A stretch of DNA of 64,000 bases, from contig JAGXAR010000013.1 in the NCBI GenBank assembly GCA_018971525.1, positions 2,389-66,388 of the forward strand, given 5' to 3'. The DNA is from Nitrospirota bacterium. GTDB taxonomy: Bacteria > Nitrospirota > Nitrospiria > Nitrospirales > Nitrospiraceae. The notes beneath the pieces are model-generated. The model was not told where the DNA came from. It did no database searches and saw only the letters and a program-made list of their open reading frames with translations. Each line of letters begins with the position of its first letter. Within the stretch, counting starts at the first letter, position 1. Below are positions 17,318 through 45,780 of this stretch, piece after piece. The translations under genes were made by a program, and so were the position numbers.

Positions 17318-18937
17318 CTACTTTCGAGTGACCAAAAACAGTAGTTGATTATCCTGTCTTGCCTTTAACTCAAGATGCCAACCGGTCGCAGTCAGATCAG
17401 ATACTATCCAATTAAGACTCGGGCCCACCTGCCCGTTAACCCACGGTCCCCCAAGGTATGCACCATGCACATATAACAGAAAGCGAGGCTCTGTTCTCTT
17501 ATATGGCTCAGACTCTTGGATGTTCATGTGAAACCAAGGTCGCAAGTCCAATATGCCTCGATCCAACGTATCATGCCCAAGGTAGCGGAACGACCTATCC
17601 GGGTCGGCCAGATAGACGAAGCGAGAGGAGAGATCTCGCGGAGCATAGTGAGACAGCTTCATGAAGTTATGAGGATCGGCCACGACGACCGGCAAATCGC
17701 TCTCTGGCACGCTCCGCACAATGGCATACATGTGGCTGAGCGCCGTTTCCGGCGTGGTGGGCAAACTGCGGGCCCATAACATGACAAATCCACCGCAAGA
17801 CAGGAAAAGGACCATCGCTCCTAGAAGTGCTCGTCCACCAAGAAGCCGGGCACTTGTCCATGCAACCAGCACGCTCACGCCAAGAACGGTCGGTAACGCG
17901 TAACGAGGCACAAACGCTCCGGTCACCGACATCGCCACGGCAACAGCGATAACAGGGAAAGACACATACCCCAGTGCAACCGCCAATTCGTGGGCCGGTA
18001 TCGCAGAAGCATTCACAGAGGCCCGGGCGTCGACATGCTGTACATGCGCCACTGCTAGGATTCCGGCAAAGATCAAGACCAACATCAGCATCAGGGGCGC
18101 CGGCATGAGCAACAACGAGTACGTCTCAGGTATCGACTGCCAGCTTGGAAGTGCCCAGAATCCCTTGGCATACGTCCGCGCTTTTTCAATCACGGGAATG
18201 AATACCAGCAGTGGGGAGAGTGCTCCACCCATTGCAAGCCAGATCGCCCAATCCACACGGCGGCGGTCGTAGGAGCGCACAAGCTCGGCGATTCCCAGCG
18301 GGACAAACACCAATACAGCGTAATAGTGACTGCACAAGGCGGCGGCTAGACTCCCGAATAAACCCAACAGCGGCAACCAACGGACACGACGCTCTGTGGC
18401 AGCCTGCCAAGAGAGCCAGGATGCGGAAGCAAAAGCCAGTACCAGCCCATAGGGCCTGGCTTCGTAGCTGTAAAAGTTTGCTCCCGTCCCAAAGAGAAAT
18501 ATCATCGCGACGAACCCATACAGCGAAGAGCTTCGGTGCGCAACGATATGAAAGAGACAAACCCCTGCGCCCCACACCCCGATCATTTCCGGCAAGCGAA
18601 GAGCCCATTCATTGACTCCGAACAAGCCAAGCGACCATCGAGTCAGCACGTAGAACGGAAATGGATTCTGATCTGCGCCGGTCAGGAGCGCGGACCAGAT
18701 ACCGGAGAGCGACGGTGCTTGGGCGATAAAATACGTAAACAGTTCATCATTCCACATAGGCTTACGCGAGGCCAACACGCTTGTCGCCGCGAAATACACG
18801 AACGAGACCGCCCCCAGCAGCAATAACCTGTGCTGTTCGCACAAATCCAGCAAGGATTCCGCATAGCCATCGAGCCATTGCACTGCTTGCACGAGAACCG
18901 GCGACTTCTCCGACGAACTCACATCAGCCGACATCAT
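17318..18937 (-). CDS. GT-C fold polytopic glycosyltransferase (ArnT/PMT-like)
   Basis: 539-aa protein with many TM helices. An acidic first loop (KPMWNDELFTYF) resembles ArnT/PMT enzymes. Start reset to ATG 18937 (14-nt overlap with the upstream gene). Confidence 0.6.
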   Translation of the reverse strand: MMSADVSSSEKSPVLVQAVQWLDGYAESLLDLCEQHRLLLLGAVSFVYFAATSVLASRKPMWNDELFTYFIAQAPSLSGIWSALLTGADQNPFPFYVLTRWSLGLFGVNEWALRLPEMIGVWGAGVCLFHIVAHRSSSLYGFVAMIFLFGTGANFYSYEARPYGLVLAFASASWLSWQAATERRVRWLPLLGLFGSLAAALCSHYYAVLVFVPLGIAELVRSYDRRRVDWAIWLAMGGALSPLLVFIPVIEKARTYAKGFWALPSWQSIPETYSLLLMPAPLMLMLVLIFAGILAVAHVQHVDARASVNASAIPAHELAVALGYVSFPVIAVAVAMSVTGAFVPRYALPTVLGVSVLVAWTSARLLGGRALLGAMVLFLSCGGFVMLWARSLPTTPETALSHMYAIVRSVPESDLPVVVADPHNFMKLSHYAPRDLSSRFVYLADPDRSFRYLGHDTLDRGILDLRPWFHMNIQESEPYKRTEPRFLLYVHGAYLGGPWVNGQVGPSLNWIVSDLTATGWHLELKARQDNQLLFLVTRK

Positions 18938-20750
18938 GACGCTCCTTTTCGCTGAGAGCGTTCTGAGGCATGAGGGGCAGCGATCCCGTCTCAGGCTGCA
19001 CGATGACTGAGCCAGAACGAACGCGCTCATAAATTTCGAACGCCTGTTCATGTCGCTCTCCGGTTTCTGTCACGACATCATCACTATAGACTCGTTTCCA
19101 GCGATCGGGGAATCTCTCGACTACCCTCTTCATGAAGCGTTTGCTATCAATAGCCAGTCCCTCGTCAAGAATGAGGTAGGTGACCGGCACGGACTCCAAG
19201 AGTTGCTCTGCCTTGATGGGATCAGACTCGAAAGGAGGCATCACCGTCTTGTTTCCCGTTCTTAGATAGACCCAATGGGGCATCGAAACGGCAATGACGT
19301 CACTTGGTTTGGCATGCGCCATCATCCAATCCACACCGGAATCGAGTGCGCGATAGGAGTCCATATAGAAAAACAGGCGATACCTAACCGTATCGCCTTG
19401 CCGGGTTTCGTACTGCACCGGGAGGTGGCGCTTCGCATAGACCGCACTGGTCGTCGCAATCTGTTGTACGGTGATCCCGACTACAACCAAGCATGCAATA
19501 GCACGGACTCCGCTCTTCCATCTGCTCGGCGGAGGTTGCCTCGATTGCTCCAATACCCAGGCAATGGCGGTGCACATGGCCAATGCCAACAAGGGGACCG
19601 TCGGCATCAGATACCGATTAAATTGCTCCGGCCAGGGTGTGAGGCAGATGACCGAAATGAAAGAGAGGACGCAAAGCGGGATAATAAGATTTCCTTGGGT
19701 TGCAAGTAGGCCCGTGCCAATCAGAACGAGGCATCCCAAGGCAAACAATGGAAGATCAACAATCCACTGTGGTCCGGCTTCAATACCCAATCGCTTTGAG
19801 ATCTCCTCCCGTTCTACCTCCCACACACGCCTCATCGAACTCACGGACTCTCCGATATACCTCGTTACCTGGGTAACATTGTGGAAGTATCGTTCGACCC
19901 GATCCGAGAATGTCGAGTACCCCAGGTCCGGGGCAAAGGGGTCGTTGAGCGAGACGTTCCTTGCGTAGCTGACGTTGTAGAACATGTAATCGGCGCGCTG
20001 ATAGGCATATATGGGGTGTTGATACTCCGCGCTTGTCTCGACGTACTGTACATACGAGAACCATCCAACGACTGGAACCGCCGCAATGGCGACTCGAATG
20101 ACCGCGGCCTTCCATTGCCTCCTCACGAGCCCTTCAGCTATCCAAGCCGCGAGCAGAGCAATGCCGGCAGTACGCAATGCAAACGCTGTAATGGCAAAGG
20201 CGCCTGCCCAGGCTTGAGTGGGCCACCGCTTTTCACTTGAATAGGCAAGGAGAAATCCAACGGTGAAAAGACCATAGAGCATGTCCGGGAAACACAAATC
20301 TGACAGAAAGTACGTATGGACGTTCAAGAGGCATACGACACTCCCGAAGAAGGCGTAGGCGCTCGAAAGATGCCGTCGCAGGAACGCATAAATAGCAAAG
20401 ATATAAGTCGCAAACGCTAAAAATGATGAGAGTCGGAGAAAGCGGCCAACGACAAGAGGGTCGCTTGTCCCAAGCACGATTTGATGTGCCGCAATGATCA
20501 GCGGAAGTAGTGGAGGATACTGATTTGCCTCGATCTCACCAGGTTCATTGAGAAGCCGATAGCCTTTCCCCTCAGCGAGCGACGTCCCGAGCACATAGTA
20601 CGCGCCGCCATCCCAGCGCAAATCGATCGGTCCATGGATACGGGGCACCCATAGGGCGACGACCAGTAGCCCTAACAGCGCGCATGGAGTCCACTCTTTG
20701 CGCGCCTGGTTGCGAAGCATTGACCAAGCAGCCAGTACAAGTCGGTTCAT
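18924..20750 (-). CDS. GT-C fold polytopic glycosyltransferase (ArnT/PMT-like), second copy
   Basis: 608-aa ORF with ATG start and many TM helices. The first loop reads DLRWDGGAYYVLGTSLAEGKGYRL. A large C-terminal soluble domain follows. Confidence 0.6.
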   Translation of the reverse strand: MNRLVLAAWSMLRNQARKEWTPCALLGLLVVALWVPRIHGPIDLRWDGGAYYVLGTSLAEGKGYRLLNEPGEIEANQYPPLLPLIIAAHQIVLGTSDPLVVGRFLRLSSFLAFATYIFAIYAFLRRHLSSAYAFFGSVVCLLNVHTYFLSDLCFPDMLYGLFTVGFLLAYSSEKRWPTQAWAGAFAITAFALRTAGIALLAAWIAEGLVRRQWKAAVIRVAIAAVPVVGWFSYVQYVETSAEYQHPIYAYQRADYMFYNVSYARNVSLNDPFAPDLGYSTFSDRVERYFHNVTQVTRYIGESVSSMRRVWEVEREEISKRLGIEAGPQWIVDLPLFALGCLVLIGTGLLATQGNLIIPLCVLSFISVICLTPWPEQFNRYLMPTVPLLALAMCTAIAWVLEQSRQPPPSRWKSGVRAIACLVVVGITVQQIATTSAVYAKRHLPVQYETRQGDTVRYRLFFYMDSYRALDSGVDWMMAHAKPSDVIAVSMPHWVYLRTGNKTVMPPFESDPIKAEQLLESVPVTYLILDEGLAIDSKRFMKRVVERFPDRWKRVYSDDVVTETGERHEQAFEIYERVRSGSVIVQPETGSLPLMPQNALSEKERHDVG

Positions 20751-31802: not shown

Positions 31803-32993
31803 CTAAGATGTTCCCTCGTCCATCATCGGTTGGCGACCAGACTCAGTAAGGAGGTAGAGCTGATGTAGGCCTCCGATCCATAGCGATCGGGGACTCTGAG
31901 ACTCGTCCGCATGGATCGCAGACAAGCGTCGTTCGTCCCGAAAAATAAGGCCCGTATGAGAGAGAAAGTCCTTCACCACGCCGTTCACGCTATTCCAACG
32001 GACCAAGAGATCGTAGGACGTGTCAGTCTTGTCATACAGAACATTCCCCCATTTGCGTTTATAGCGAACCAATCCGTCGTGCAGTGAAGGCCGGGCGCCT
32101 CTGAAATCTACTTCTGCACAACTCAACTGGCCGGCATGCGCGATGCTGTAATAATAGAGTGCCGCCATTATTCCTCTCTTGTTCAGCGGGAGCTCACCCG
32201 TAGCCATGCCTATGGCCTGAAGGTCGAGTGTGTCGTTTTTCTGTTCGAAGAGCATGCCAGCAAGTGGATGCTTGTCCCGAATGACCCAGAGAATTCCCCC
32301 TTTTCGGAGACTACGTCGCAAGTCGTACCGGCTCTTGACGAAAGCCATTGCTCCGTGACGGGCTCGCGAGAAGGGGACGTACATGGAATCGTAGAACTCT
32401 TGAAACCGTTCCTCCCGCTCGGTGACCAGCGGTTGTAGCTTGTGCTTGCGGGCCAGGCGCATATCCTCGCGGATACTACGGTTGCAACGCACCAATGAAT
32501 CGAGATCCTCCGGTACAGCGAGCCGCATGCCGACCCATTCAGGAACCGCGAGATAGTCCCTCCCGGGAAATTTCTGCGCCGACAATCGGTCTACACGGGC
32601 GATAGTCAGATCGGCTGACGCGCGCAGGCGATCTAGCAGAGCAGGCAGTTCCCATGACAACACATTTCCGACCAGTTCGCGTTGGGGCTTCCCAACGAAA
32701 AACCTGCTCGGCAAGTAGCTGACCCAGGGATCATGTCCCGCCACCAGCAGTGTCCCCTGTCGACCAGATTGATTGGTTGCTCCCCGCAGCAACACGACAG
32801 GGATCCGTCGCAGTCCCAGGCGGGCCACTGCAAAAAGGCCGTAGCGCGTGAGCAGGATTTGTGCTTTGCCAGAAAGGCGGGAGATGGTCCAATCGACCAC
32901 CTTGCTTGCTAGCTGATTCATGCCCTCCCTCTGCTCCTTTTCATTCGACGGACCGCCACAACATTCGCTAAGGGCTGCGAGGCCCCATCGCAC
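31803..32993 (-). CDS. FemAB/BioF2-like GNAT-fold acyltransferase (CelD-like)
   Basis: The C-terminal ...AEVDFRGARPSLHDGLVRYKRKWG matches the FDFG...YK..WG pattern of FemAB-like acetyltransferase domains. Start is uncertain: GTG 32993 or ATG 32921. Confidence 0.55.
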   Translation of the reverse strand: MRWGLAALSECCGGPSNEKEQREGMNQLASKVVDWTISRLSGKAQILLTRYGLFAVARLGLRRIPVVLLRGATNQSGRQGTLLVAGHDPWVSYLPSRFFVGKPQRELVGNVLSWELPALLDRLRASADLTIARVDRLSAQKFPGRDYLAVPEWVGMRLAVPEDLDSLVRCNRSIREDMRLARKHKLQPLVTEREERFQEFYDSMYVPFSRARHGAMAFVKSRYDLRRSLRKGGILWVIRDKHPLAGMLFEQKNDTLDLQAIGMATGELPLNKRGIMAALYYYSIAHAGQLSCAEVDFRGARPSLHDGLVRYKRKWGNVLYDKTDTSYDLLVRWNSVNGVVKDFLSHTGLIFRDERRLSAIHADESQSPRSLWIGGLHQLYLLTESGRQPMMDEGTS

Positions 32994-36434: not shown

Positions 36435-36670
36435 TATGTAGCCTCCCCACCTAAACAATGGCAGTGTAGGGCGTTTAGGTCTTGCCCACAATACCTCCCC
36501 GCTAGAGCAAGGCCCTACAGAAGAGGGGTGGCCGCCCTCACCGCTCTATTCGGCATTGCTGATTGGAAACCGCACGCGAAGGCATTTCCGCAATGTGCTA
36601 CCAAGAGAACCAACAGCCCGGTCGGAAGGTCGGGGAAGGAGGAACAGTTAGAACTTTTTCAGCCGAGAGG

Positions 36671-37684
36671 TCAGTGTGGCCGGTCTCGCGCATCTCTGCC
36701 GCGCAGCGAACGATGTCCCCGATCCATCATGGCAAGGCACAGCAGCCCGATTCCGATCCAGACCAGCTCGCGGAAGCGCCGGAGCAACGCGAAGGTGATG
36801 CCGGTGACGTCGGTGTAGCCGAAGGCTTTCAACAGAAGCAGATTGCCGCCGTCTTGCGCGCCAAGGCTGCCGGGGATGAAGAAGGTGCCCCCTTTGATGA
36901 AGACAGAGAGCGCCCCGATAGAAACGGCAGAGGGCGCCATCGCCGGCCCACCGAGATAATAGATGATGACGTACACTTCCAGCGCTTCCGCCATCCAACC
37001 AAGGAAGAAGAGCCCGGTGGAGGTATAAAAGGCCGGACGGTTATGGCTGTAGAATTCCAAGATCGTTCGATCCAGCGACCGTAACTTTTCCTCGTGTGCT
37101 TCGAGATAGGCAATTTTCAGCCCGATCTTCCGTAGAACTTCCAATATCCACGTAAAGAGCCCTCGCCGCTGCACGAACACGAAGGCCGCAGTCCCGAAGG
37201 CCAGCAGGCCCACGCTCAAGAGTGCTGCGGCCACGATCCGACCGGATGAATCCCTCCCACCTATCACCCACACACCCAAAACGATGCCGAGCAGAATGAA
37301 CAACACTTCGGCAATCGTCATCGTCGTTTTCGCAATGACGACCGAGGCGAGCCCTTCCACCATCGGCACATCGTGCTTCTTGAGCAGATAAGCCTTGAGC
37401 GGCTCGCCCCCGACGTAGGCGGTCGGCGTGGTCATGTTCACCACCTCACCAGCGGTCCGGATCGCGAGCACCCGCCAAAATGGAATATTCTTAGCCGAGG
37501 GGCCAAGCGTGACTTTCCAACCGTAGGCTTCGACGGCGTACATGACGACGGAAGGAATCAGCAGGACGAGGAGCGCGACCGGCCCCAATTGCGCCGCCGC
37601 GTCGTAGATGCGCCCAAGCCCGATATGCCACACGAGGAAACCAAGGGTGAGGAGACCGAGGACGAGTAGGAGATATCGCAGCAC
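36671..37684 (-). CDS. Flippase-like polytopic membrane protein (lysylphosphatidylglycerol-synthase TM-region family)
   Basis: 337-aa ORF with GTG start, about 8 TM helices and an N-terminal LLLVLGLLTLGFLVWHIG pattern typical of this family. Confidence 0.55.
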   Translation of the reverse strand: MLRYLLLVLGLLTLGFLVWHIGLGRIYDAAAQLGPVALLVLLIPSVVMYAVEAYGWKVTLGPSAKNIPFWRVLAIRTAGEVVNMTTPTAYVGGEPLKAYLLKKHDVPMVEGLASVVIAKTTMTIAEVLFILLGIVLGVWVIGGRDSSGRIVAAALLSVGLLAFGTAAFVFVQRRGLFTWILEVLRKIGLKIAYLEAHEEKLRSLDRTILEFYSHNRPAFYTSTGLFFLGWMAEALEVYVIIYYLGGPAMAPSAVSIGALSVFIKGGTFFIPGSLGAQDGGNLLLLKAFGYTDVTGITFALLRRFRELVWIGIGLLCLAMMDRGHRSLRGRDARDRPH

Positions 37685-37698
37685 GCGCGGCTAGGCAC

Positions 37699-39132
37699 TC
37701 ATGGCTTGGTTGCCAGACAGACTGAAGGCCGAATGACCCACAACATCAAGAATGAAAACACCAGGGATCCGATCGCGGCCATCCAGAGGAACCAGTCGAG
37801 CTTGCCGATCACAGCAAAAATCAGAACGATGACGGAGAAATCGCGGCTCGCGACGTTCTTGAGCATGAAATCGGACCAGGCGGCCTGTACCGGCGTCTTC
37901 CATCCGTTCACGGACTTGATCTTTTGTGCGCGGGTGACAAGCCAGAACGAGAGTGCGTTCCCAGCAACCGCGGCCGAACCCAAGGCCAAGGGGACCCACG
38001 CCCCCTCGCTCCCGGACACGCGCAGGTAGGAACCCGCGGCGATGCCGCCAAAGATCGCCATATGCACCACGTTGTCCATGGCGATATCGAGCCAGGCTCC
38101 GAACGACGATTCGGTGAACGTCAGCCTGGCTACTTCGCCATCGCAGCAATCGATGATCGCCGCCAATTGGAACAACAGCGCGGCAATGATCCCGGCGCTG
38201 TAGGTCCCGACGCCAAACCCGGCAGCCGCGGCCAACCCGACCCCTGTGGCAAGGATTGTAATGGCGTTCGGCGAGAGGCCTGCGGCGAGAAAGATACGCG
38301 TGAACCAGCGGGAGACCTTCCGATTGAAGAACCGGTCGACGAAGCCTTCGAACTCGCCCTTGAGGGAATTGAAGAGTTTTTTCTCAGCCGCCTGCACATC
38401 GGCGGCATCGCGCACGTCCTGATACCAATGAGACCGGTTCGTCTCCGTGGACAACACCCGCACATGCCCGTCCACCGCGGCCAGTTCAAGCCATCGACGA
38501 ATCGGCACCGTGCCCGCTTCCACGCCGATGTGACCGGCCCCACTCATGAAACTGGCCGGAAGCACGACCAGGTCTGTCGCCACCAGCGCCGCGTCGTCCT
38601 GTCTGGATGTGATCGAAAGGAACCGTCCCGCCTGCGCCTTCACGCGCAAACCCGACCGCCTGCGCTGTCGATCCCGCTCGTGATCGGCCCGTGCCACGAC
38701 GATCGCCTCTCCCTCCTGCACCTTCTGGCGCAGACTCTCGATCAGGGGGCGCGGAAACACCCCCCGGACGCCGGACAGGAGACAAAACCCGCGAACTTCA
38801 GCAGCGAGCGCTTCCCAGGTGCGGGGATCATCGAGCGGAAACTCACGAATCGGCATCCAGCGGACAGGGATCGTCACACGTGGCCCTTTGCCCAATGCCT
38901 GTTTGAGTTGATCCTCCTCCGGTCCGACCAGCACCATGAGCTGCCGAATGCCGGCACGCTGGAGCGTCAACACAGTCCGCTGAAACAGGCCGATGCCCAC
39001 CACACTGGTGAGCGGACCCACCTCATCGGCATATAATCCGGCCGGCTCGCCAAACAGGCTCACCGAGGGTAAGAGAATCGCCGTGCTCAATCCCTGCACG
39101 TCGGCACGCTTTTGTATGAGGCTCTCGCTCAT
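37699..39132 (-). CDS. Fusion: NTP-transferase-like domain (N) + CDP-alcohol phosphatidyltransferase (C)
   Basis: The C-terminal half has DCCDGEVARLTFTESSFGAWLDIAMD, i.e. D-x2-D-G-x2-A-R-x8-G-x3-D-x3-D, within TM helices. The N-terminal ~230 aa are soluble and nucleotidyltransferase-like, with a degenerate G-loop. Confidence 0.75.
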   Translation of the reverse strand: MSESLIQKRADVQGLSTAILLPSVSLFGEPAGLYADEVGPLTSVVGIGLFQRTVLTLQRAGIRQLMVLVGPEEDQLKQALGKGPRVTIPVRWMPIREFPLDDPRTWEALAAEVRGFCLLSGVRGVFPRPLIESLRQKVQEGEAIVVARADHERDRQRRRSGLRVKAQAGRFLSITSRQDDAALVATDLVVLPASFMSGAGHIGVEAGTVPIRRWLELAAVDGHVRVLSTETNRSHWYQDVRDAADVQAAEKKLFNSLKGEFEGFVDRFFNRKVSRWFTRIFLAAGLSPNAITILATGVGLAAAAGFGVGTYSAGIIAALLFQLAAIIDCCDGEVARLTFTESSFGAWLDIAMDNVVHMAIFGGIAAGSYLRVSGSEGAWVPLALGSAAVAGNALSFWLVTRAQKIKSVNGWKTPVQAAWSDFMLKNVASRDFSVIVLIFAVIGKLDWFLWMAAIGSLVFSFLMLWVIRPSVCLATKP

Positions 39133-39217
39133 ATTCTATTCCGTCTCTCGTGTCTCGTCGTTCGTATCTCGCACGGCCGGTCAGGGCTTCAGATGAAACG
39201 TCCCACGACCGGCGCAG

Positions 39218-39937
39218 CTACAGTCTCGGCAACACGTCCCGTTCCGCTTTGGTCACATCTTCCAGGAAATCGATTTCGGTCCAGGGCAGCCCACCGATCT
39301 TCTCATGTCCGACTTTGACATTTTTGAAAAACCCCACGAGCGCATCTTCATATTCCATCTGCCAGGCCTCGCGGTCCACATAGGTCCTGAGCGACGCAAC
39401 CACATGGGGCGTATCGGCCTGTCGGACCTTGAGAAACCCCACGCCTTCTCCGGCATAGTCATAGTGCGACGGCATCTTTTTCGTCAATGCAATTACGCGC
39501 CCGCCTTCGACCACGACCATGCACTCTTCTCCGGTTTGCTTGACGGTTTCATCCATGAGCAGCGCGTTCTCGCAGGGGGATTGCACCAGTCGACGCAAGA
39601 TCTCTTGATGGAAAAGCACATCTGCATCCATGACGATCGCATCGTCATCCAACGCGGTGCGCGCGATCCACAGCGAGGAAATGCTGCCGCGGTGGAACTG
39701 CTCGTTGACGAGAAAATTCACGCGCACCCCGCAAGAGTTTGCTGCCACAGCCTCGCGAATCATCTCCTGCTTGTAGCCCACGACCACATCGGCACTCTGA
39801 ATCCCCACACTCCGGAGCGACGTGAGGTAGCGATGCAGGAGAGTCTGACCGCCGATCTCGATGAGGCACTTGGGGCGATGTTGCGTGATCTGCCACAGGC
39901 GCTTCCCGACCCCGGCCGCGAGGATGATGGCTTTCAT
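39218..39937 (-). CDS. Nucleotidyltransferase (LicC/PntC-like cytidylyltransferase)
   Basis: MKAIILAAGVGKRL pyrophosphorylase loop. ATG 39937 forms an ATGA overlap with the aminotransferase stop (the ORF-track start is TTG 39949). Confidence 0.75.
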   Translation of the reverse strand: MKAIILAAGVGKRLWQITQHRPKCLIEIGGQTLLHRYLTSLRSVGIQSADVVVGYKQEMIREAVAANSCGVRVNFLVNEQFHRGSISSLWIARTALDDDAIVMDADVLFHQEILRRLVQSPCENALLMDETVKQTGEECMVVVEGGRVIALTKKMPSHYDYAGEGVGFLKVRQADTPHVVASLRTYVDREAWQMEYEDALVGFFKNVKVGHEKIGGLPWTEIDFLEDVTKAERDVLPRL

Positions 39938-41016
39938 GCTGTGCAGCAAATCCGTTCAAATGCATCGAGGAATCCGACCAACTGCGCCTCCGTGAGGGCG
40001 CCCATGTTGGCCACGCGGAAGATCCTGCTCTCGAGTTGCCCTTGGCCCGCATAGATAACGTAGCCCTGCTTCTTCAGCTTGTCGTGCAACGATTGATAGG
40101 TGAGGCCCTCAGGGAGATGATAGGCGGTGATCGTGTTGGACTGCTTGTCGGGAGTCAGGACCGGCTTCACGCCTAGCTTCGTCATGCGGTCTCTGATCAA
40201 GGTCGCGACCTTCTTGTATCGCTGAATCCGCTTGGCGACCCCTTCCTCCATGAGTTCGTTCAACGCTTCGTCGAACGCATAATAGACCTGCACCGCCGGC
40301 GTGAACGGTATCGTTCCGCCGCCCTGGTCATCCACATACTGAGTGAGGTGGAGATAAATCGACCGTCTGGGGTAGCCACGCATCCGCTCCAAGAATCCCT
40401 TGCGGACGAGCACGAAGGCCAGGCCTGGAAATCCCTGGATACATTTTCCAGATGTGCCAGCCACCATATAGATGTGAGACCCGGCGATATCCAGCGGCTC
40501 CCCCGCCAAGGCGCTGACCGCGTCCAGAATGAACACCCGGTTCTGGCTGTCGACAACATCCGCGATCTCCTTGACCGGATTGATGAGTCCGGTGGTCGTC
40601 TCATGATGGACCATTCCAACCGCATGCACTTCCGGATGTTGTCGCAGCGCGAGCCGCAACCGCTCCGGATCCGGCCTCGTCGTCCAGTCGTACTTGAGTT
40701 CGGACACGCCCAGGCGATGCAGACCGACCATCTGGGACATGCGCTCGCCGTACACGCCGTTGTTGAGCACCAGCATCCGTTTGCCGTGCGGGAGCGACGA
40801 CATGACGGCGGACTCCACCGCCGCAGTTCCCGATCCGGTCATCACCACAGCGGCATAATCCGCTTCCGCCCCAGGCACAAAGAGCTTCAGCAGCTTCACC
40901 TGAATCCCGTGCAAGAGTTCGGTAAATTCCGACTCCCGATGGCAGATATCCGGACGCAACAGCGCCTGCCGTACCCGCTCTGACACATTCACCGGTCCTG
41001 GATTCAATAAGATCAT
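39934..41016 (-). CDS. Class-V PLP aminotransferase (2-aminoethylphosphonate:pyruvate / serine-pyruvate aminotransferase-like)
   Basis: MILLNPGPVNVS start and GTSGKCIQG PLP-lysine region. 360 aa. Confidence 0.7.
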   Translation of the reverse strand: MILLNPGPVNVSERVRQALLRPDICHRESEFTELLHGIQVKLLKLFVPGAEADYAAVVMTGSGTAAVESAVMSSLPHGKRMLVLNNGVYGERMSQMVGLHRLGVSELKYDWTTRPDPERLRLALRQHPEVHAVGMVHHETTTGLINPVKEIADVVDSQNRVFILDAVSALAGEPLDIAGSHIYMVAGTSGKCIQGFPGLAFVLVRKGFLERMRGYPRRSIYLHLTQYVDDQGGGTIPFTPAVQVYYAFDEALNELMEEGVAKRIQRYKKVATLIRDRMTKLGVKPVLTPDKQSNTITAYHLPEGLTYQSLHDKLKKQGYVIYAGQGQLESRIFRVANMGALTEAQLVGFLDAFERICCTA

Positions 41017-41187
41017 CTTGTCTCTCTCTTCCTTCCTTCCACCCCGTACCAGCGATCGAAACCGCTTCGACCGAGCGCGTCCAACGAGGGCTTCACTACC
41101 GTTCTCACTCCCCTACACTCGCGGCGCCGAGGCGCCGCGTTTCCCGACAGGCTGCGCGTTGCGCGAACAAGGGAGCGGCTCGATCGC

Positions 41188-41766
41188 TCATTCAATCGCT
41201 TTCATGAACCGCTTCGTAATGTCCGGCGGATCAAGCATCACGCGCCCGACATCTTCCACCATCTCATTGACTTTCACCAGCAACATGCTCGGCCCGTCTT
41301 TCTTCAGCATGTCTTTGAACTCGTAGACGAGGTCTTCGCGTTCCCGTACCCGTTCGACGTTCACATACCCGGCCGCCTTCGCCACCTTCTCAAGTGGGAC
41401 CACATTGGAAATCGTCGGCTGATTGCCGGTACTACCATAGACCTCATTGTCGAACACCACATGAATAAAATTCTTCGGCTTAAGCGCACCGACCGTGGCC
41501 AAGGTGCCCATCCCCATCAACACATTCCCATCACCGTCGAATATCACGACTTGCTTGTTCGGCTTGGCCAGCGCCACGCCCAGCCCGATCGCCGATGCCA
41601 CGCCCATGGACCCGATCATATAAAAATGGGTCGGACGATCGGCAATTTTGTAGGCCTCACGCGAGGGAAATCCGTTGCAAATAATCACCGGCTGATCGGT
41701 GAGCAGTTCCAATAAGGCCGCCATGGCCATCGCTCGACTCTGCATTGTTCCTTGTTCCGGCCTCAT
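41188..41766 (-). CDS. TPP-dependent 2-oxoacid decarboxylase, beta subunit (sulfopyruvate/phosphonopyruvate decarboxylase family)
   Basis: IFDGDGNVLMGMGTLATV...FDNEVYGSTG TPP-binding motif. Start reset to ATG 41766 (ATGA overlap with the alpha subunit). Confidence 0.75.
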   Translation of the reverse strand: MRPEQGTMQSRAMAMAALLELLTDQPVIICNGFPSREAYKIADRPTHFYMIGSMGVASAIGLGVALAKPNKQVVIFDGDGNVLMGMGTLATVGALKPKNFIHVVFDNEVYGSTGNQPTISNVVPLEKVAKAAGYVNVERVREREDLVYEFKDMLKKDGPSMLLVKVNEMVEDVGRVMLDPPDITKRFMKAIE

Positions 41767-42260
41767 GGATGCAACCCTCTCACGACACCTTTTGTAATCA
41801 AGAGGGCGACGGGGATTCGCTGCTTCATGAACGTCTCCGCCAGCCATTTCAGATCGTCAATCGCCGCCTTTTCCGACAGGGTGCGATGGGGGATCTTCAT
41901 CGTGTCGAGTAACTGCGGCATCACCTCGCCCATCACCAGATGCTCCGGCGCATCCTTGCCTTGATAGCCGCGCCAGGACACAATCAGAATACAGGGCTGG
42001 CGGTAAATCACGTTCAACGAAATGAGGGCGTTGAGGGACGTACCCAGTCCGGAATTCTGCATGAGCACGGCGGGGACCTTGCCGGACATGTAGGCACCGG
42101 CGGCCATGGCGACTGCTTCATCTTCCCGAACGGCCGGGGTATAGAGTCGCCGCTCCATCAACTCGGCAATGATGCCGCCCAGAATCGAATCCGGGACCCC
42201 CGTAAAGAAATCCACCCCGATATCCTGCAGGGCTTGGACAAACGCGTCGCTTTCAATCAT
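41763..42260 (-). CDS. TPP-dependent 2-oxoacid decarboxylase, alpha subunit (sulfopyruvate/phosphonopyruvate decarboxylase family)
   Basis: The 165-aa ORF has FFTGVPDSILGG and a pyrimidine-binding-domain pattern. Its ATG is preceded by GAGGAA. This is the first gene of the operon. Confidence 0.75.
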   Translation of the reverse strand: MIESDAFVQALQDIGVDFFTGVPDSILGGIIAELMERRLYTPAVREDEAVAMAAGAYMSGKVPAVLMQNSGLGTSLNALISLNVIYRQPCILIVSWRGYQGKDAPEHLVMGEVMPQLLDTMKIPHRTLSEKAAIDDLKWLAETFMKQRIPVALLITKGVVRGLHP

Positions 42261-42302: not shown

Positions 42303-42332
42303 ATTATAAGCTATGCCTCGAGACATTCTCAA
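42303..42332 (-). promoter_or_regulatory. Candidate sigma70-type promoter of the 42260->24398 operon
   Basis: On the minus strand, TTGAGA (42332-42327), an 18-nt spacer and TATAAT (42308-42303). The -10 box lies 42 nt upstream of ATG 42260, inside a 121-bp divergent intergenic region. Confidence 0.4.
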
Positions 42333-42381: not shown

Positions 42382-42915
42382 ATGATCGGACGGCAGAGAA
42401 ATCACGCGGGCCGACACCTTGCCCTGCTGGGACTCCTGCTCTGTATGAGCCGCCCCTTTCTTGCCCATGCGGTGCCGATGGTGAACGATCCGAACGGTTT
42501 TCAGAACCTGTCCTGGGGTACCACCCTGACGGCAAGGCCGGACTTGGAAGTTACCAGGGGCGGCCAGCATGTGAACGAATACCAATTGAGGGATAGCCCG
42601 CCGTTGTTTGCCGGAATCCCGGTCGAGAGCGTCCGCTTCTTGTCGGTCGATGAACAATTCGCCCGCGTGACCATCCGCTACCAGGGTGACGATCGGCACA
42701 GACAGATCCTCACCTATCTGGAACAACAGTTCGGCTCCATTGAGCGCGTCCCCGGGCAGATGATGCGGGGCCTCAATCAGCAGTATAATTGGCGAGGGAC
42801 TGATACTGAGATCAATTTGACCTACCATGCGAACACGCAGCGGGGATTCATTTTTATCGACAGCCGCACCCTGGCCCCTCGGTTCAACGACCAAATGGCC
42901 GATTCAGCCGACTAA
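42382..42915 (+). CDS. Secreted protein of unknown function (paralog A)
   Basis: Signal-peptide-like N-terminus ending in AHA. It shares AVPM.NDPNGF, F.RV.RYQG, IL.YL and VNL.Y motifs with the next ORF. Confidence 0.6.
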   Translation: MIGRQRNHAGRHLALLGLLLCMSRPFLAHAVPMVNDPNGFQNLSWGTTLTARPDLEVTRGGQHVNEYQLRDSPPLFAGIPVESVRFLSVDEQFARVTIRYQGDDRHRQILTYLEQQFGSIERVPGQMMRGLNQQYNWRGTDTEINLTYHANTQRGFIFIDSRTLAPRFNDQMADSAD

Positions 42916-43456
42916 TATTTCATGCATTCCCCACACGGAGCCGCGGATCCGTCACACCTCCCTCATCTGCATCCTTTTCGCGCTCGTCCTGCAGAGCACC
43001 CTGGCATTCGCCGTGCCGATGCAGAACGATCCTAACGGGTTCGAGGGGATCCCCTGGGGCGCGACTTTTTCTGAAACCGACACCTTCATTAAAGTAGAAG
43101 ACACCGGTCGGTCTCAAACCTTTGAACTGAAGACCGGGGCTGCTTCGCTCGGCCCGGTGAAGGTCGACTCCATGCGATTCGTGACCTCAGAAGGCAAATT
43201 CGCACGTGTCACCGTCCGCTACCAGGGCAAGGCAACCCACGATCAGATTCTTGCCTATCTCCAATCCCTCTATGGCTCGCTCGACCGCACACCGGGACAG
43301 ATCGCCGGCGGCCCCGTCAAAGTCTTTAGCTGGACTGGTTTCGAGACCGATGTAAACCTCCGATACGAGACCGGCGCCGATCGCGGCATCATCTTTTTCG
43401 AAAGCCAGGAACTCCGCCGCAAAATCACCGAAGGTAATTCGCCCACCGTGTTTTAA
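42827..43456 (+). CDS. Secreted protein of unknown function (paralog B); start uncertain
   Basis: Paralog of 42382-42915 with a signal peptide LICILFALVLQSTLAFA. The only canonical start (ATG 42827) overlaps paralog A by 89 nt. At the homologous start position only ATT codons (42917, 42926) are present. Confidence 0.55.
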   Translation: MRTRSGDSFLSTAAPWPLGSTTKWPIQPTNISCIPHTEPRIRHTSLICILFALVLQSTLAFAVPMQNDPNGFEGIPWGATFSETDTFIKVEDTGRSQTFELKTGAASLGPVKVDSMRFVTSEGKFARVTVRYQGKATHDQILAYLQSLYGSLDRTPGQIAGGPVKVFSWTGFETDVNLRYETGADRGIIFFESQELRRKITEGNSPTVF

Positions 43457-43495
43457 CCGGCACGCGCCTTCTGCCTGAAGGTCCAAAAACTTTTA

Positions 43496-43622
43496 GCGGG
43501 ATGCTGAAAAAGTCCGTCAGCCTCGTTCTCGCCCCGCGAAGAGGCTCCCCATACCGAAGAGAGTACGCAGAGCCTCTTCGCGTGCTGCGGCCTTCCTGGA
43601 AAACGTTTGAGCATTCTGCCGG
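43496..43622. repeat. MITE-like repeat, short variant (copy 1)
   Basis: Imperfect terminal inverted repeats (TIRs): GCGGGATGCTGAAAAAGTCC at the left end and GGAAAACGTTTGAGCATTCTGCC at the right. An internal palindrome GAAGAGGCTC..GAGCCTCTTC is present. The copy encodes the pseudo-ORF MLKKSVSLVLA. Confidence 0.7.
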
Positions 43623-44038
43623 ATACTCTCCCATTGCCCCAGAGCCGCGGGCCATTGAACGTCTATCATGCCACAATTGCTATGTTCACAACTGCGGCAC
43701 GGTCTCGCCTCAAGCGCAACTATCTTCACGGACATCGCCCAAGAATTGACGGACCGCGGCCATACCGTGACCTCCGTGCCCATCTTCAAAGCTTGGGCCA
43801 AGATTCTCCAGTAGCCTTCGGTATCCTCCCTCTCACGATCAGCCTCGCTGTCTTTCTCCAGCATGGGCTCGCCCATCCCCGTAAAACCCTCGGCCATTGT
43901 GGCCCAGCGTCCAATTCCCCCTCTTCTGGTGGGGCCTCAATCCCCTCTCTTTAGGGATGGTCGAAATTCCGGGATGCGGTATTCTCAAACTGTCGCGAGG
44001 GACAGAGGAACCGCGGCGGAACCACGGAGGAGGCACCG

Positions 44039-44455
44039 ATGAAGCTGAGTCACCCTGCTCTCAAGATTAACAGCCAGAAAGCTCATTCGCTCTTGGATAG
44101 GCGGTATGCCGAACGCGTTCCGATTCGCTACCGAGTCAGCTACTCAGGAGCAGAAGGCGCACGAATCGTCACAGGAGAGGGAACCCTGAAAGACCTCTCC
44201 AAAACTGGATGCAAGATCTTGGGCATGACCACAAGCTCGCTGGGAAGCAGCCTCACCCTGCTCCTCTACCTTGAGGATGGGCAGGCCCCCATGTGCCTCA
44301 CCAGCGTCACCGTCTCCTGGATCGATCGAGTCTCATTTTCTGTCAGATTCCCCAAGCTGTCAGCGGAAGAGCGGAAGCGGCTGCAAGAAGTGATCTGGAA
44401 ACATGTCAGCCTGTCGTCCTTGGACGATCGGCGGACGGCATTCCGAATCGTCTAA
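44039..44455 (+). CDS. PilZ-domain protein (stand-alone), paralog 1
   Basis: RRYAER (RxxxR) and DLSKTG (DxSxxG) motifs about 28 aa apart. SD GGAGGAGG. Confidence 0.8.
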   Translation: MKLSHPALKINSQKAHSLLDRRYAERVPIRYRVSYSGAEGARIVTGEGTLKDLSKTGCKILGMTTSSLGSSLTLLLYLEDGQAPMCLTSVTVSWIDRVSFSVRFPKLSAEERKRLQEVIWKHVSLSSLDDRRTAFRIV

Positions 44456-44483
44456 GCGTTGATCCAACGTCACGGAGGAAATC

Positions 44484-44876
44484 ATGCATGCTCACACCAT
44501 CGCTCCCACCACCGCAGTAGATGAACTCCCCGGTCAATCCAACCGCCGGCACGGCAGACGAACCCCGACACTCTTCTCGTTGCTCTATTCCGGCATGGAC
44601 GCCGGCCAGATACTCATGGCGGACGGCGTCGTCACCAACCTCTCATCGAGCGGGATTGGTATTCGCGGGAACCGCCCGGTCAAACCCGGAATGGAGCTGG
44701 CTCTCTTTGTCGACCTTCCTGGAGTGGAGGAGCCGCTATGCATTGCCCAAAGCCGGGTCTCCTGGGTTGAGGGACGTCGATTCGGGGTGGAGTTGGGGAC
44801 CCTGAAGTTGGAGGAGCAAAATCATCTGCGATTCTTCTTGTGGGATCGCATCACCCCCTCAGACCGCGGCATCTGA
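44484..44876 (+). CDS. PilZ-domain protein (stand-alone), paralog 2
   Basis: RRHGRR and NLSSSG motifs. SD ACGGAGGAA. Confidence 0.8.
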   Translation: MHAHTIAPTTAVDELPGQSNRRHGRRTPTLFSLLYSGMDAGQILMADGVVTNLSSSGIGIRGNRPVKPGMELALFVDLPGVEEPLCIAQSRVSWVEGRRFGVELGTLKLEEQNHLRFFLWDRITPSDRGI

Positions 44877-44905
44877 GACCGTAGCAGGAACAAGGAGGTG
44901 CCCTC

Positions 44906-45292
44906 ATGAAACGAGCACAGGTCACATCCGGAAGTAGGCTTCAGTCTGTGGCGGAGGCGGTCAATCAGAGGCAAACCTCCCGGACCCCAGTAGAGTTCGG
45001 GTTGATGTACTCGGCGCAAGACCGTTCCGGCGAGGTTCTCATGGGCGATGGCATGGTCACGGATCTTTCTCATCATGGATTGGGCATTCGCGGCAACACC
45101 GCCGTTGCGCCGGGGATGGAACTTACGATTTTCCTCTACCTCCCCGACGGAAAGGACCCGCTCTTCGTGATGGAAGCGAGAGTGGCATGGACCTCAGGAC
45201 GTCGGTTTGGAGTCGAGATCCTCAAGATGGGCTTACGGGAAGGTAACCGGCTCCGTCATTTCTTGTGTTCGAACCTCACACATTCCGATTAG
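44906..45292 (+). CDS. PilZ-domain protein (stand-alone), paralog 3
   Basis: QRQTSR and DLSHHG motifs. SD AAGGAGG. Confidence 0.8.
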   Translation: MKRAQVTSGSRLQSVAEAVNQRQTSRTPVEFGLMYSAQDRSGEVLMGDGMVTDLSHHGLGIRGNTAVAPGMELTIFLYLPDGKDPLFVMEARVAWTSGRRFGVEILKMGLREGNRLRHFLCSNLTHSD

Positions 45293-45320
45293 ACGGAGTG
45301 CCTGCTGTACAGAGACCCCT

Positions 45321-45780
45321 ATGACAAGACGACGACGGCCTGGCAAGCGAGTGACAACCAGACCTCCGTTTCAGACCACAGACCGCAGAGGCGCTCAACG
45401 AGTGCCTCGTTCAGTTCATGGTCCGCTTTTCCGCAACCGATAGCTTCCAACATGTCGGCAATGGAATGGCCCTTGACCTGTCTGAGAGCGGGTTCAAGCT
45501 CTCCGGCGCAGAGCTGTTGCCCATAGGAAGCTTCTGGGATCTCTACCTGACCATCTCTGGGACGCCCCGACCGGTTCTCATCTCAGAGGTTCGGGTCATC
45601 CGGGTCGCGAAAAACGAATACGGAATCGAGTTTCTCCGCATCTCGGCGCGAGAGCGAACGCGGTTACGTGATTTCCTCTGGAAGCAGACGACTCGCTCCA
45701 TCCTTGAAGGCGGACATCCCTTGTTTTCCCTCGTTGACCACTCGGGCACACGACCGACACACCTCAAATCACTGCCCTAA
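45321..45780 (+). pseudogene. PilZ-domain paralog 4, interrupted by a 1-nt frameshift near 45408
   Basis: The frame from ATG 45321 encodes MTRRRRPG...DRRGAQRVP (RxxxR) and stops at 45441. The frame of ORF 45418-45780 encodes VQFMVRFSATD...DLSESG (DxSxxG). Removing one base at about 45408 restores the paralog pattern R-V-P-x-x-F-x-V-x-F-S. Confidence 0.65.

Follow-up and report, generated by a model that had tools for sequence, protein, structure and literature searches.

The DNA analysed here is a window of 64,000 nucleotides (64 kb) on contig JAGXAR010000013.1 of a Nitrospirota bacterium, and the system of interest is a six-gene module whose products resemble enzymes that make, activate and transfer a 2-aminoethylphosphonate (AEP) head group. 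A first-pass annotation, made from the letters of the sequence, had described six co-directional genes here. The open reading frame (ORF) listing and the profile searches agreed with it, and all six ORFs were recovered on the minus strand with the same coordinates (Table 1). The pathway drawn from them in that annotation, in which a substrate is decarboxylated, transaminated, activated with cytidine monophosphate (CMP), transferred and flipped, was supported by the family matches.

The split decarboxylase had been taken to point to sulfopyruvate decarboxylase (ComDE), and scoring of both subunits against hidden Markov models of that enzyme and of phosphonopyruvate decarboxylase (Ppd) had been proposed. 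When joined, the alpha and beta subunits reached 326.4 bits on the Ppd equivalog TIGR03297 (cutoff 312.5), with model positions 1-358 of 360 aligned. Both ComDE models were failed: the alpha subunit gave 116.4 bits on ComD (114 joined; cutoff 147.95) and the beta subunit 195.8 bits on ComE (193.9 joined; cutoff 221.5). Orthologues of the pair, here called PpdAB, scored just under 312.5 in Nitrospira moscoviensis (305.6) and in the distant locus L004 (304.7). The best PDB match of the beta subunit was RhiF (9IZ3_B, 108.9 bits). The thiamine diphosphate (TPP) motif GDG-X25-DN was read in the beta translation, and REDEAVAMAAGAY, the segment with the cofactor-activating Glu, in the alpha translation. 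The structure of a heteromeric Ppd, RhiEF from the rhizocticin pathway, has been solved (PDB 9IZ3/9IZ4; PMC12141560), and separate Ppd domains have been noted in other phosphonate clusters too (PMC8942020). Given the RhiEF precedent, the two-subunit layout is not diagnostic of ComDE.

The aminotransferase scored 346.9 bits on TIGR03301 (PhnW-AepZ), by far its top family, with positions 1-352 of 355 aligned and the score under the cutoff of 360.8; orthologues gave 350.5 and 331.4. Its best PDB matches were PhnW (9KK8/1M32, about 198 bits) and the AEP transaminase (AEPT) domain of the Treponema denticola PntC-AEPT fusion (6PD1, 193.7 bits), and the segment TSGKCIQG, with the pyridoxal phosphate lysine, aligned with SANKCIQG of PhnW 1M32 and 9KK8. 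For the nucleotidyltransferase of 239 amino acids (aa) the best PDB match was the PntC domain of 6PD1 (full length, 57.8 bits), with LicC (1JYK) second. The protein has a GxGxRL motif, and its MEYE segment aligned with Glu196 of the T. denticola enzyme (Tde-PntC), where LicC has LYWD; at the position of Tde Glu104 it carries Asp, as in LicC. Glu196 of Tde-PntC faces the amine of AEP (PMC6697681). AEP-pathway enzymes were the best characterised relatives of all three soluble enzymes, and the decarboxylase, aminotransferase and PntC-like steps were inferred from this family similarity and from genomic linkage to a gene of the phosphoenolpyruvate (PEP) mutase family.

The 477-aa protein scored 36.7 bits on PF01066 (cutoff 22), and its cytidine diphosphate (CDP)-alcohol phosphotransferase motif DxxDGxxARx8Gx3Dx3D was intact in the segment IDCCDGEVARLTFTESSFGAWLDIAMD. 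The N-terminal domain has neither the GxGxR/K signature nor the catalytic Lys. The best PDB matches were AF2299 (4O6M) and IPCT-DIPPS (4MND); an IPCT-DIPPS model matched residues 161-387, and on the IPCT-DIPPS model NF041135 the score was far under the cutoff (94.9 vs 580 bits). More than 120 sequence clusters of this protein were found at 85-93% identity, essentially all full length, and the named relatives in that range were all Nitrospira, Nitrospiraceae or Nitrospirota metagenome-assembled genomes. The flippase-like protein gave 157.7 bits on TIGR03476 (HpnL), under the cutoff of 195.65. Elsewhere, at L009:10001-11380, a true NTP_transferase + CDP-OH_P_transf fusion, 31% identical, was found with glycosyltransferase genes adjoining and no Ppd or aminotransferase genes; it is a different system on the same scaffold.

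Three ATGA overlaps had been claimed within the module. Two were true, those of the alpha and beta genes and of the aminotransferase and nucleotidyltransferase genes. The third ATGA lies at the stop of the 477-aa gene, and an in-frame TAG follows three codons later, so that it cannot start the flippase-like gene, whose earliest possible start is the GTG at 37684. The longest ORF of the beta subunit extends to 41847, yet every orthologue was 192-196 aa in length. The promoter-like TTGAGA-N18-TATAAT of the first-pass annotation is present, but three such sites were observed in the region against 2.6 expected by chance, no more than in shuffled sequence, and the site alone therefore carries little weight.

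The six genes had also been placed at the head of a longer downstream operon, and this did not hold. The flippase-like gene is followed by a gap of 179 nucleotides (nt) with a terminator-like hairpin at 36610-36625, and it was the last module gene in all relatives. Three sister contigs (L001-L003) carry the same six genes followed by CstA and YajQ; the methyltransferase, adenosine monophosphate (AMP)-ligase, Mur-ligase and glycosyltransferase genes that lie downstream in the window were not found there. In a distant lineage (L004-L006), whose 477-aa protein is 42-44% identical, the six-gene block is kept among quite different neighbours. The gap with its hairpin and the recurrence of the block with other downstream genes mark the module as a self-contained six-gene unit. 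The downstream methyltransferase, AMP-ligase and Mur-ligase genes were ruled out as members, as relatives lack them there. On one sister contig a second, longer LPG_synthase_TM paralogue (L003:12756-14069, 437 aa) lies right behind the module.

Table 1. Features of the six-gene module and of the DNA upstream of it in the 64-kb window
Feature	Position	Strand	Evidence
Phosphonopyruvate-decarboxylase-like alpha subunit, TPP pyrimidine-binding half, 165 aa	41763..42260	-	PF02776 (TPP_enzyme_N); TIGR03297 N-half 133.7 bits
Phosphonopyruvate-decarboxylase-like beta subunit, TPP diphosphate-binding half, 192 aa	41188..41766	-	PF02775 (TPP_enzyme_C); best PDB match RhiF
AEP-transaminase-like class-V aminotransferase, 360 aa	39934..41016	-	TIGR03301; PDB matches PhnW, AEPT
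PntC/LicC-type cytidylyltransferase, 239 aa	39218..39937	-	PF00483/PF12804; PDB match 6PD1 PntC domain
Membrane CDP-alcohol phosphotransferase with degenerate N-terminal nucleotidyltransferase-like cytoplasmic domain, 477 aa	37699..39132	-	PF01066, residues 287-440
MprF-TM/HpnL-type flippase-like membrane protein (LPG_synthase_TM), 337 aa	36671..37684	-	PF03706, 111.6 bits
Promoter-like TTGAGA-N18-TATAAT, some 43 nt before the ATG of the alpha subunit	42303..42332	-	11/12 positions match
Divergent small ORF with signal peptide, 177 aa, conserved module companion	42382..42915	+	Related ORFs at all Nitrospirales loci examined
Second small ORF, same family as the 177-aa ORF	42827..43456	+	85% identity to L003 homologue
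Deletion scar, about 225 nt of filler replacing about 1.6 kb of the PepM-like/nucleotidyltransferase fusion gene	43495..43718	.	DNA profile; spacer alignment
Remnant of the PEP-mutase-like/nucleotidyltransferase fusion gene (3' end: last ~32 codons and stop)	43719..43814	+	tblastn, blastn, nhmmer
Four tandem PilZ-domain genes (context), downstream of the PepM-NT gene in relatives	44039..45780	+	PF07238 in four ORFs

A library-wide representative search returned relatives of the 477-aa protein that were full length and 44-51% identical. At one of these loci (L007) the module is divergently adjoined by a 556-aa gene in which PF13714 is fused to NTP_transf_3, a PepM-like/nucleotidyltransferase fusion (PepM-NT). 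A homologue search with the L007 fusion as query found it widespread in Nitrospira, and it occupies the same slot in Ca. N. bockiana (complete genome), in the widely sampled P0339 lineage and in N. moscoviensis, a cultured species whose complete seven-gene set lies at 557,783-579,462 of CP011801.1. The order in relatives is the module (leftward), one to three small ORFs, the fusion, zero to five PilZ genes and a TetR-RND (resistance-nodulation-division efflux) operon (rightward), with SCP2 and AdoMet_dc genes on the opposite strand beyond it; the flanks in the window are identical in order. A scan with one genome per species, in which a chimera of PepM-NT and the 477-aa protein served as query, retained 80 Nitrospiraceae loci with the fusion, all of them fusion matches, pepM-less species lying outside it. 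The module adjoined the fusion at all 71 loci with enough upstream sequence, and the remaining nine ended at contig ends. When the PepM-NT of L033, the closest mutase-bearing relative, was used as query, its best 120 matches were all at least 87% identical.

In the window itself no intact pepM was found: no ORF of at least 100 aa matched PF13714 in the Pfam scan, and tblastn with PepM of Mytilus (1M1B) and Streptomyces (5UNC) gave a best E value of 1.1. The first-pass statement that no ORF there is PepM-like was correct for an intact gene, but the syntenic slot predicted from relatives retains, on the expected strand, a remnant of a gene of the PEP-mutase family (Table 1). Twenty-seven residues encoded at 43725-43805 were 56% identical to residues 518-544 of the P0339 fusion (tblastn, E = 1e-5), and the reading frame continues to a stop at 43812-43814; by blastn, identity was 72% over 68 nt with L012 11551-11618. 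A DNA profile was built from 13 Nitrospira PepM-NT genes with their flanks. Homology to it ends at about 43494-43514 and resumes at 43721, the segment 43721-44298 (nhmmer E = 3.8e-59) running contiguously into the first PilZ gene, from which it follows that the window lacks about 1.6 kb of the fusion gene. Spacer alignment showed that L001 and L003 have both flanks of the gap in common with the window, with the vestige itself gone. The fusion gene is the only thing missing from the locus in the window and in L001-L003. The pepM-less assemblies include GCA_030684575.1 and GCA_030679795.1. A tree built from the four soluble enzymes placed the pepM-less clade within mutase-bearing Nitrospira, and the loss is therefore derived. 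The absence of pepM, which had been considered the oddity of the module, is thus a lineage-specific deletion in situ and not a design feature of the module.

After this loss the module has remained under strong purifying selection. All six ORFs were intact in four diverged genomes. Ratios of nonsynonymous to synonymous divergence (dN/dS) were obtained from comparisons among the window, L001 and L003, for which dS was 0.28-0.91. They were 0.075-0.086 for PpdA, 0.048-0.076 for PpdB, 0.087-0.094 for the aminotransferase, 0.051-0.072 for the nucleotidyltransferase, 0.08-0.15 for the phosphotransferase and 0.17-0.26 for the flippase-like protein. Columns at least 97% conserved in about 70-80 relatives outside the pepM-less clade were then compared with that clade. 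None was altered in PpdA (0/74), PpdB (0/89) or the nucleotidyltransferase (0/96), and the three of 153 altered in the aminotransferase were conservative changes (A45L, K217R, L256M). Since the enzymes are maintained and show no sign of a shift in specificity, the substrate would be unchanged and phosphonopyruvate still supplied; selection and unchanged sites favour the same substrate but are not proof of it.

On balance we lean, by a narrow measure, towards a module that makes an AEP-type head group and is still fed with phosphonopyruvate. Judged from its family matches and conserved surroundings, it is most likely a self-contained phosphonyl-tailoring unit, conserved in Nitrospirota, that would follow the logic of the Kennedy pathway with AEP as the head group. 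The conversion of PEP to phosphonopyruvate would be encoded by the PepM-NT fusion in related Nitrospira, the gene deleted in the source genome; there, a mutase gene elsewhere in the genome is the most likely supplier. The split TPP enzyme PpdAB would convert phosphonopyruvate to phosphonoacetaldehyde, the class-V aminotransferase would convert this to AEP, and the PntC-type enzyme would form CMP-AEP from AEP and cytidine triphosphate (CTP). The CDP-alcohol phosphotransferase is predicted to pass the aminoethylphosphonyl group to a membrane alcohol with release of CMP. The acceptor would most simply be diacylglycerol, by parallel with the CDP-choline and CDP-ethanolamine steps of the Kennedy pathway. 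The MprF-TM/HpnL-like protein would then move the product to the outer leaflet.

Several observations weigh against this reading. No mutase was found within 10 kb of the module in the three sister genomes or in the 64 kb of the source genome, nor was an unlinked copy of the fusion found among the 80 retained loci of the one-genome-per-species scan, so that a pepM elsewhere is an assumption. In three further lineages, L097 (GCA_046351095.1, a 3.16-Mb contig), L098 and L004-L006, an intact module was found with no mutase-like gene within 6-10 kb, so that the clade of the window is not alone in its mutase-less state and a mutase-independent reading stays alive. The proteins also score at or just under their equivalog cutoffs (Ppd 305-326 vs 312.5, AEPT 331-350 vs 360.8, PepM-like 275-289 vs 319.55). 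All 88 fusions of Nitrospiraceae (L007, L010-L096; e.g. L096:10001-11680) carry EDNxxPKRCS in place of the EDKx5NS motif, with substitutions K116N and N122C in Mytilus numbering. They keep D58, D85, D87, E114, K120, S123, R159 and H190, and score below cutoff on both the PEP-mutase model TIGR02320 (the PepM-like range just given) and the phosphonopyruvate-hydrolase model (256-271). The variant Cys occupies the position of the catalytic Cys in isocitrate-lyase-type lyases, and to judge from its motif the EDNx5CS 'mutase' may do something other than PEP mutation. The literature searched contained no chemistry, lipid or nuclear magnetic resonance data on Nitrospira, and its sole lead was one lake metagenome paper in which pepM was reported in Nitrospirota. 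Both published inventories of PEP mutase (Ppm) were filtered on EDKx5NS, a motif absent in only 22 of 905 fused PF13714 proteins (PMC8942020, PMC6697681). The EDNx5CS proteins of Nitrospira would be excluded by such a filter, which would explain why Nitrospira is missing among the phosphonate producers in the texts searched.

One idea, which we regard as unlikely though worth keeping in view, is that the head-group pathway of Nitrospirota, of the Ppd/AEPT/PntC type, operates with no PEP mutase at all and takes either a phosphate-ester analogue or phosphonopyruvate from an unrecognised source. In its phosphate-ester form, to which we give the same minor share of belief, the mutase is not needed: 3-phosphohydroxypyruvate would pass through phosphoglycolaldehyde and phosphoethanolamine to CDP-ethanolamine, the end product would be a phosphatidylethanolamine-like lipid or a phosphoethanolamine decoration, and the fusion of relatives would be an accessory for an alternative substrate or have another role. 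Such a route agrees with a module that stays intact and under purifying selection in a clade with no linked mutase-like gene, that stands alone in L097, L098 and L004-L006, and for which no unlinked mutase-like copy was seen among the 80 loci. It agrees also with the EDNx5CS motif and the near-equal sub-cutoff scores on the mutase and hydrolase models, with AEPT-like and Ppd-like proteins at or under their cutoffs, and with a nucleotidyltransferase for which AEP and phosphoethanolamine are indistinguishable as substrates by sequence. It has to contend with the linkage of the mutase-like gene at 71 of 71 Nitrospiraceae loci, with AEP-pathway enzymes as the best characterised relatives of all three soluble enzymes, and with conserved sites that did not shift after the mutase was lost. 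We know of no TPP decarboxylase for phosphohydroxypyruvate, which also counts against it. Fusion to NTP_transf_3 (PntC-type), moreover, is a hallmark of true Ppm enzymes, of which about a third are fused (PMC6697681). Were the phosphate-ester route true, the module would be a de novo, self-contained bacterial route of Kennedy type; in either form of the idea the EDNx5CS fusion would be an accessory or differently acting enzyme, dispensable to lineages that keep the module.

The other explanations carry much less weight. Salvage, with uptake of AEP or other phosphonates from outside, CMP activation and attachment to lipid, the mutase having become dispensable in this lineage, appears distinctly improbable. 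AEP is common in the environment, and such a route would need no more than the nucleotidyltransferase, phosphotransferase and flippase-like genes, which were retained when the mutase-like gene disappeared. Salvage would however have no use for the decarboxylase subunits or the aminotransferase, yet they are the most constrained (dN/dS 0.05-0.09), and Pfam scans of ORFs of at least 100 aa found no phosphonate transporter gene in the window. That the module no longer functions and is decaying now that the committed enzyme is gone would fit the deletion of the adjoining gene. Six ORFs intact in four diverged genomes, with dN/dS well under 1 at dS up to 0.9, and more than 120 essentially full-length clusters of the 477-aa protein leave very little room for it. 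Smaller still is the chance of a ComDE-type route from sulfopyruvate through sulfoacetaldehyde to a taurine head group. ComDE, from coenzyme M biosynthesis, shares the two-subunit layout and a homologous fold, the module scores 114-196 bits on its models, and the beta subunit taken by itself scores highest on ComE (195.8 vs 186 bits). Neither the ComD nor the ComE score reaches its cutoff, though, while the joined protein exceeds that of Ppd; no comA, comB or comC families were found in the window (Pfam, ORFs of at least 100 aa), and the gene conserved beside the module in relatives is of the PEP-mutase family. LicC/PntC-type nucleotidyltransferases and CDP-alcohol phosphotransferases require a phosphoryl or phosphonyl group, and taurine has none. 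The taurine route was ruled out on the model cutoffs and the chemistry of these downstream enzymes.

With the phosphonopyruvate-fed AEP module preferred, its closest parallel is the Pnt/AEP pathway (Ppm-Ppd-AEPT-PntC, Rice et al. 2019, PMC6697681; AepXYZ of B. fragilis), which has the same order of chemistry (decarboxylase, class-V aminotransferase, LicC-like cytidylyltransferase) and supplies the best solved relatives of the module enzymes, PhnW/AEPT and Tde-PntC. The mutase-like gene of the module's relatives is fused to NTP_transf_3, as in about a third of Ppm. The module differs in that the mutase gene is deleted in the source genome, that the mutase-like protein of relatives has EDNx5CS rather than EDKx5NS, and that the output is an AF2299/DIPPS-type CDP-alcohol phosphotransferase with an MprF-type flippase-like protein, whereas the transfer step in the Pnt cases described uses LicD-type transferases or glycosyltransferases (PMC6697681). 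RhiEF (9IZ3/9IZ4) is likewise a Ppd of two subunits, one chain carrying TPP_N and the other TPP_C, but rhizocticin is an antibiotic oligopeptide made via the RhiG aldolase, and the sequence similarity to the module is moderate.

For the output stage, two other systems are comparable. T. denticola has a CDP-choline pathway of Kennedy type, with LicCA and a diacylglycerol cholinephosphotransferase. The logic is the same, a cytidylyltransferase followed by a membrane enzyme of the CDP-alcohol phosphotransferase family acting onto diacylglycerol, but for the module the predicted head group is AEP, which Ppd and AEPT would make de novo. IPCT-DIPPS and AF2299 (di-myo-inositol-phosphate synthesis; 4MND, 4O6M) have the same domain order as the 477-aa protein, a cytoplasmic nucleotidyltransferase fold and then a membrane domain. 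Unlike them, that protein has an N-terminal domain without GxGxR/K, and its partners are AEP-pathway enzymes and not an inositol-phosphate synthase. From the known Ppm-Ppd-AEPT-PntC pathway the module departs at four points: the split Ppd, for which there is precedent, the output stage, the motif-variant fusion in relatives, and the deletion of the mutase-like gene in the source genome with the rest conserved.

Nitrospira rank with the most abundant nitrifiers of soil, fresh water and wastewater plants, and if their membranes carry AEP, they would be an unrecognised source of phosphonate for the phosphorus redox cycle. One sublineage without the mutase-like gene, with the other six genes strongly constrained, forms a natural experiment, and resolving the loss would lead to one of three outcomes: a second mutase, acceptance of a non-phosphonate substrate, or a variant 'mutase' of other function. 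The question is directly testable in N. moscoviensis.

Directly downstream of the module, window positions 200-36491 (minus strand) hold a glycan/peptide-ligase island of at least 36 kb that is specific to the source genome; it was not at this position in L001-L003 or N. moscoviensis. It includes two methyltransferases, three PaaK/F390-type AMP-ligases, a Mur ligase, AsnB, an ATP-grasp enzyme, a GNAT protein and an FAD amine oxidase, together with many GT2/GT4 glycosyltransferases, a Wzx-type flippase and a PF01663 phosphodiesterase. Two large ORFs of the island, 31803-32993 and 18924-20750, had no significant family match. Within the module, the 171-nt spacer between the beta and aminotransferase genes contains a GC-rich perfect palindrome, GCGGCGCC-TC-GGCGCCGC, at about 41121-41138 (minus strand). 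An Rfam scan of the whole window gave zero matches, the palindrome included; in so unusually long an intramodule spacer it may act as an attenuator within the module or as a site of RNA processing, or may be a repeat element.

The divergent gene upstream of the module had been called unrelated to it, but it was found to be a constant companion. It belongs to a family of small ORFs (164-187 aa, one to three tandem paralogues) that divergently adjoins the module in every Nitrospirales locus examined and is not present in the L004-L006 lineage. A clear signal peptide was read in the 177-aa ORF, and neither this ORF nor the second one had a Pfam match. The second ORF (42827..43456) is a paralogue of the first, and its true start probably lies downstream of 42915. 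The PilZ genes (120-138 aa each) stand between the module region and the TetR/RND efflux operon. Zero to five copies were found at the same place in related genomes, with one to five after PepM-NT in many Nitrospira loci, and the varying copy number suggests a rapidly expanding array of receptors for cyclic diguanylate (c-di-GMP).

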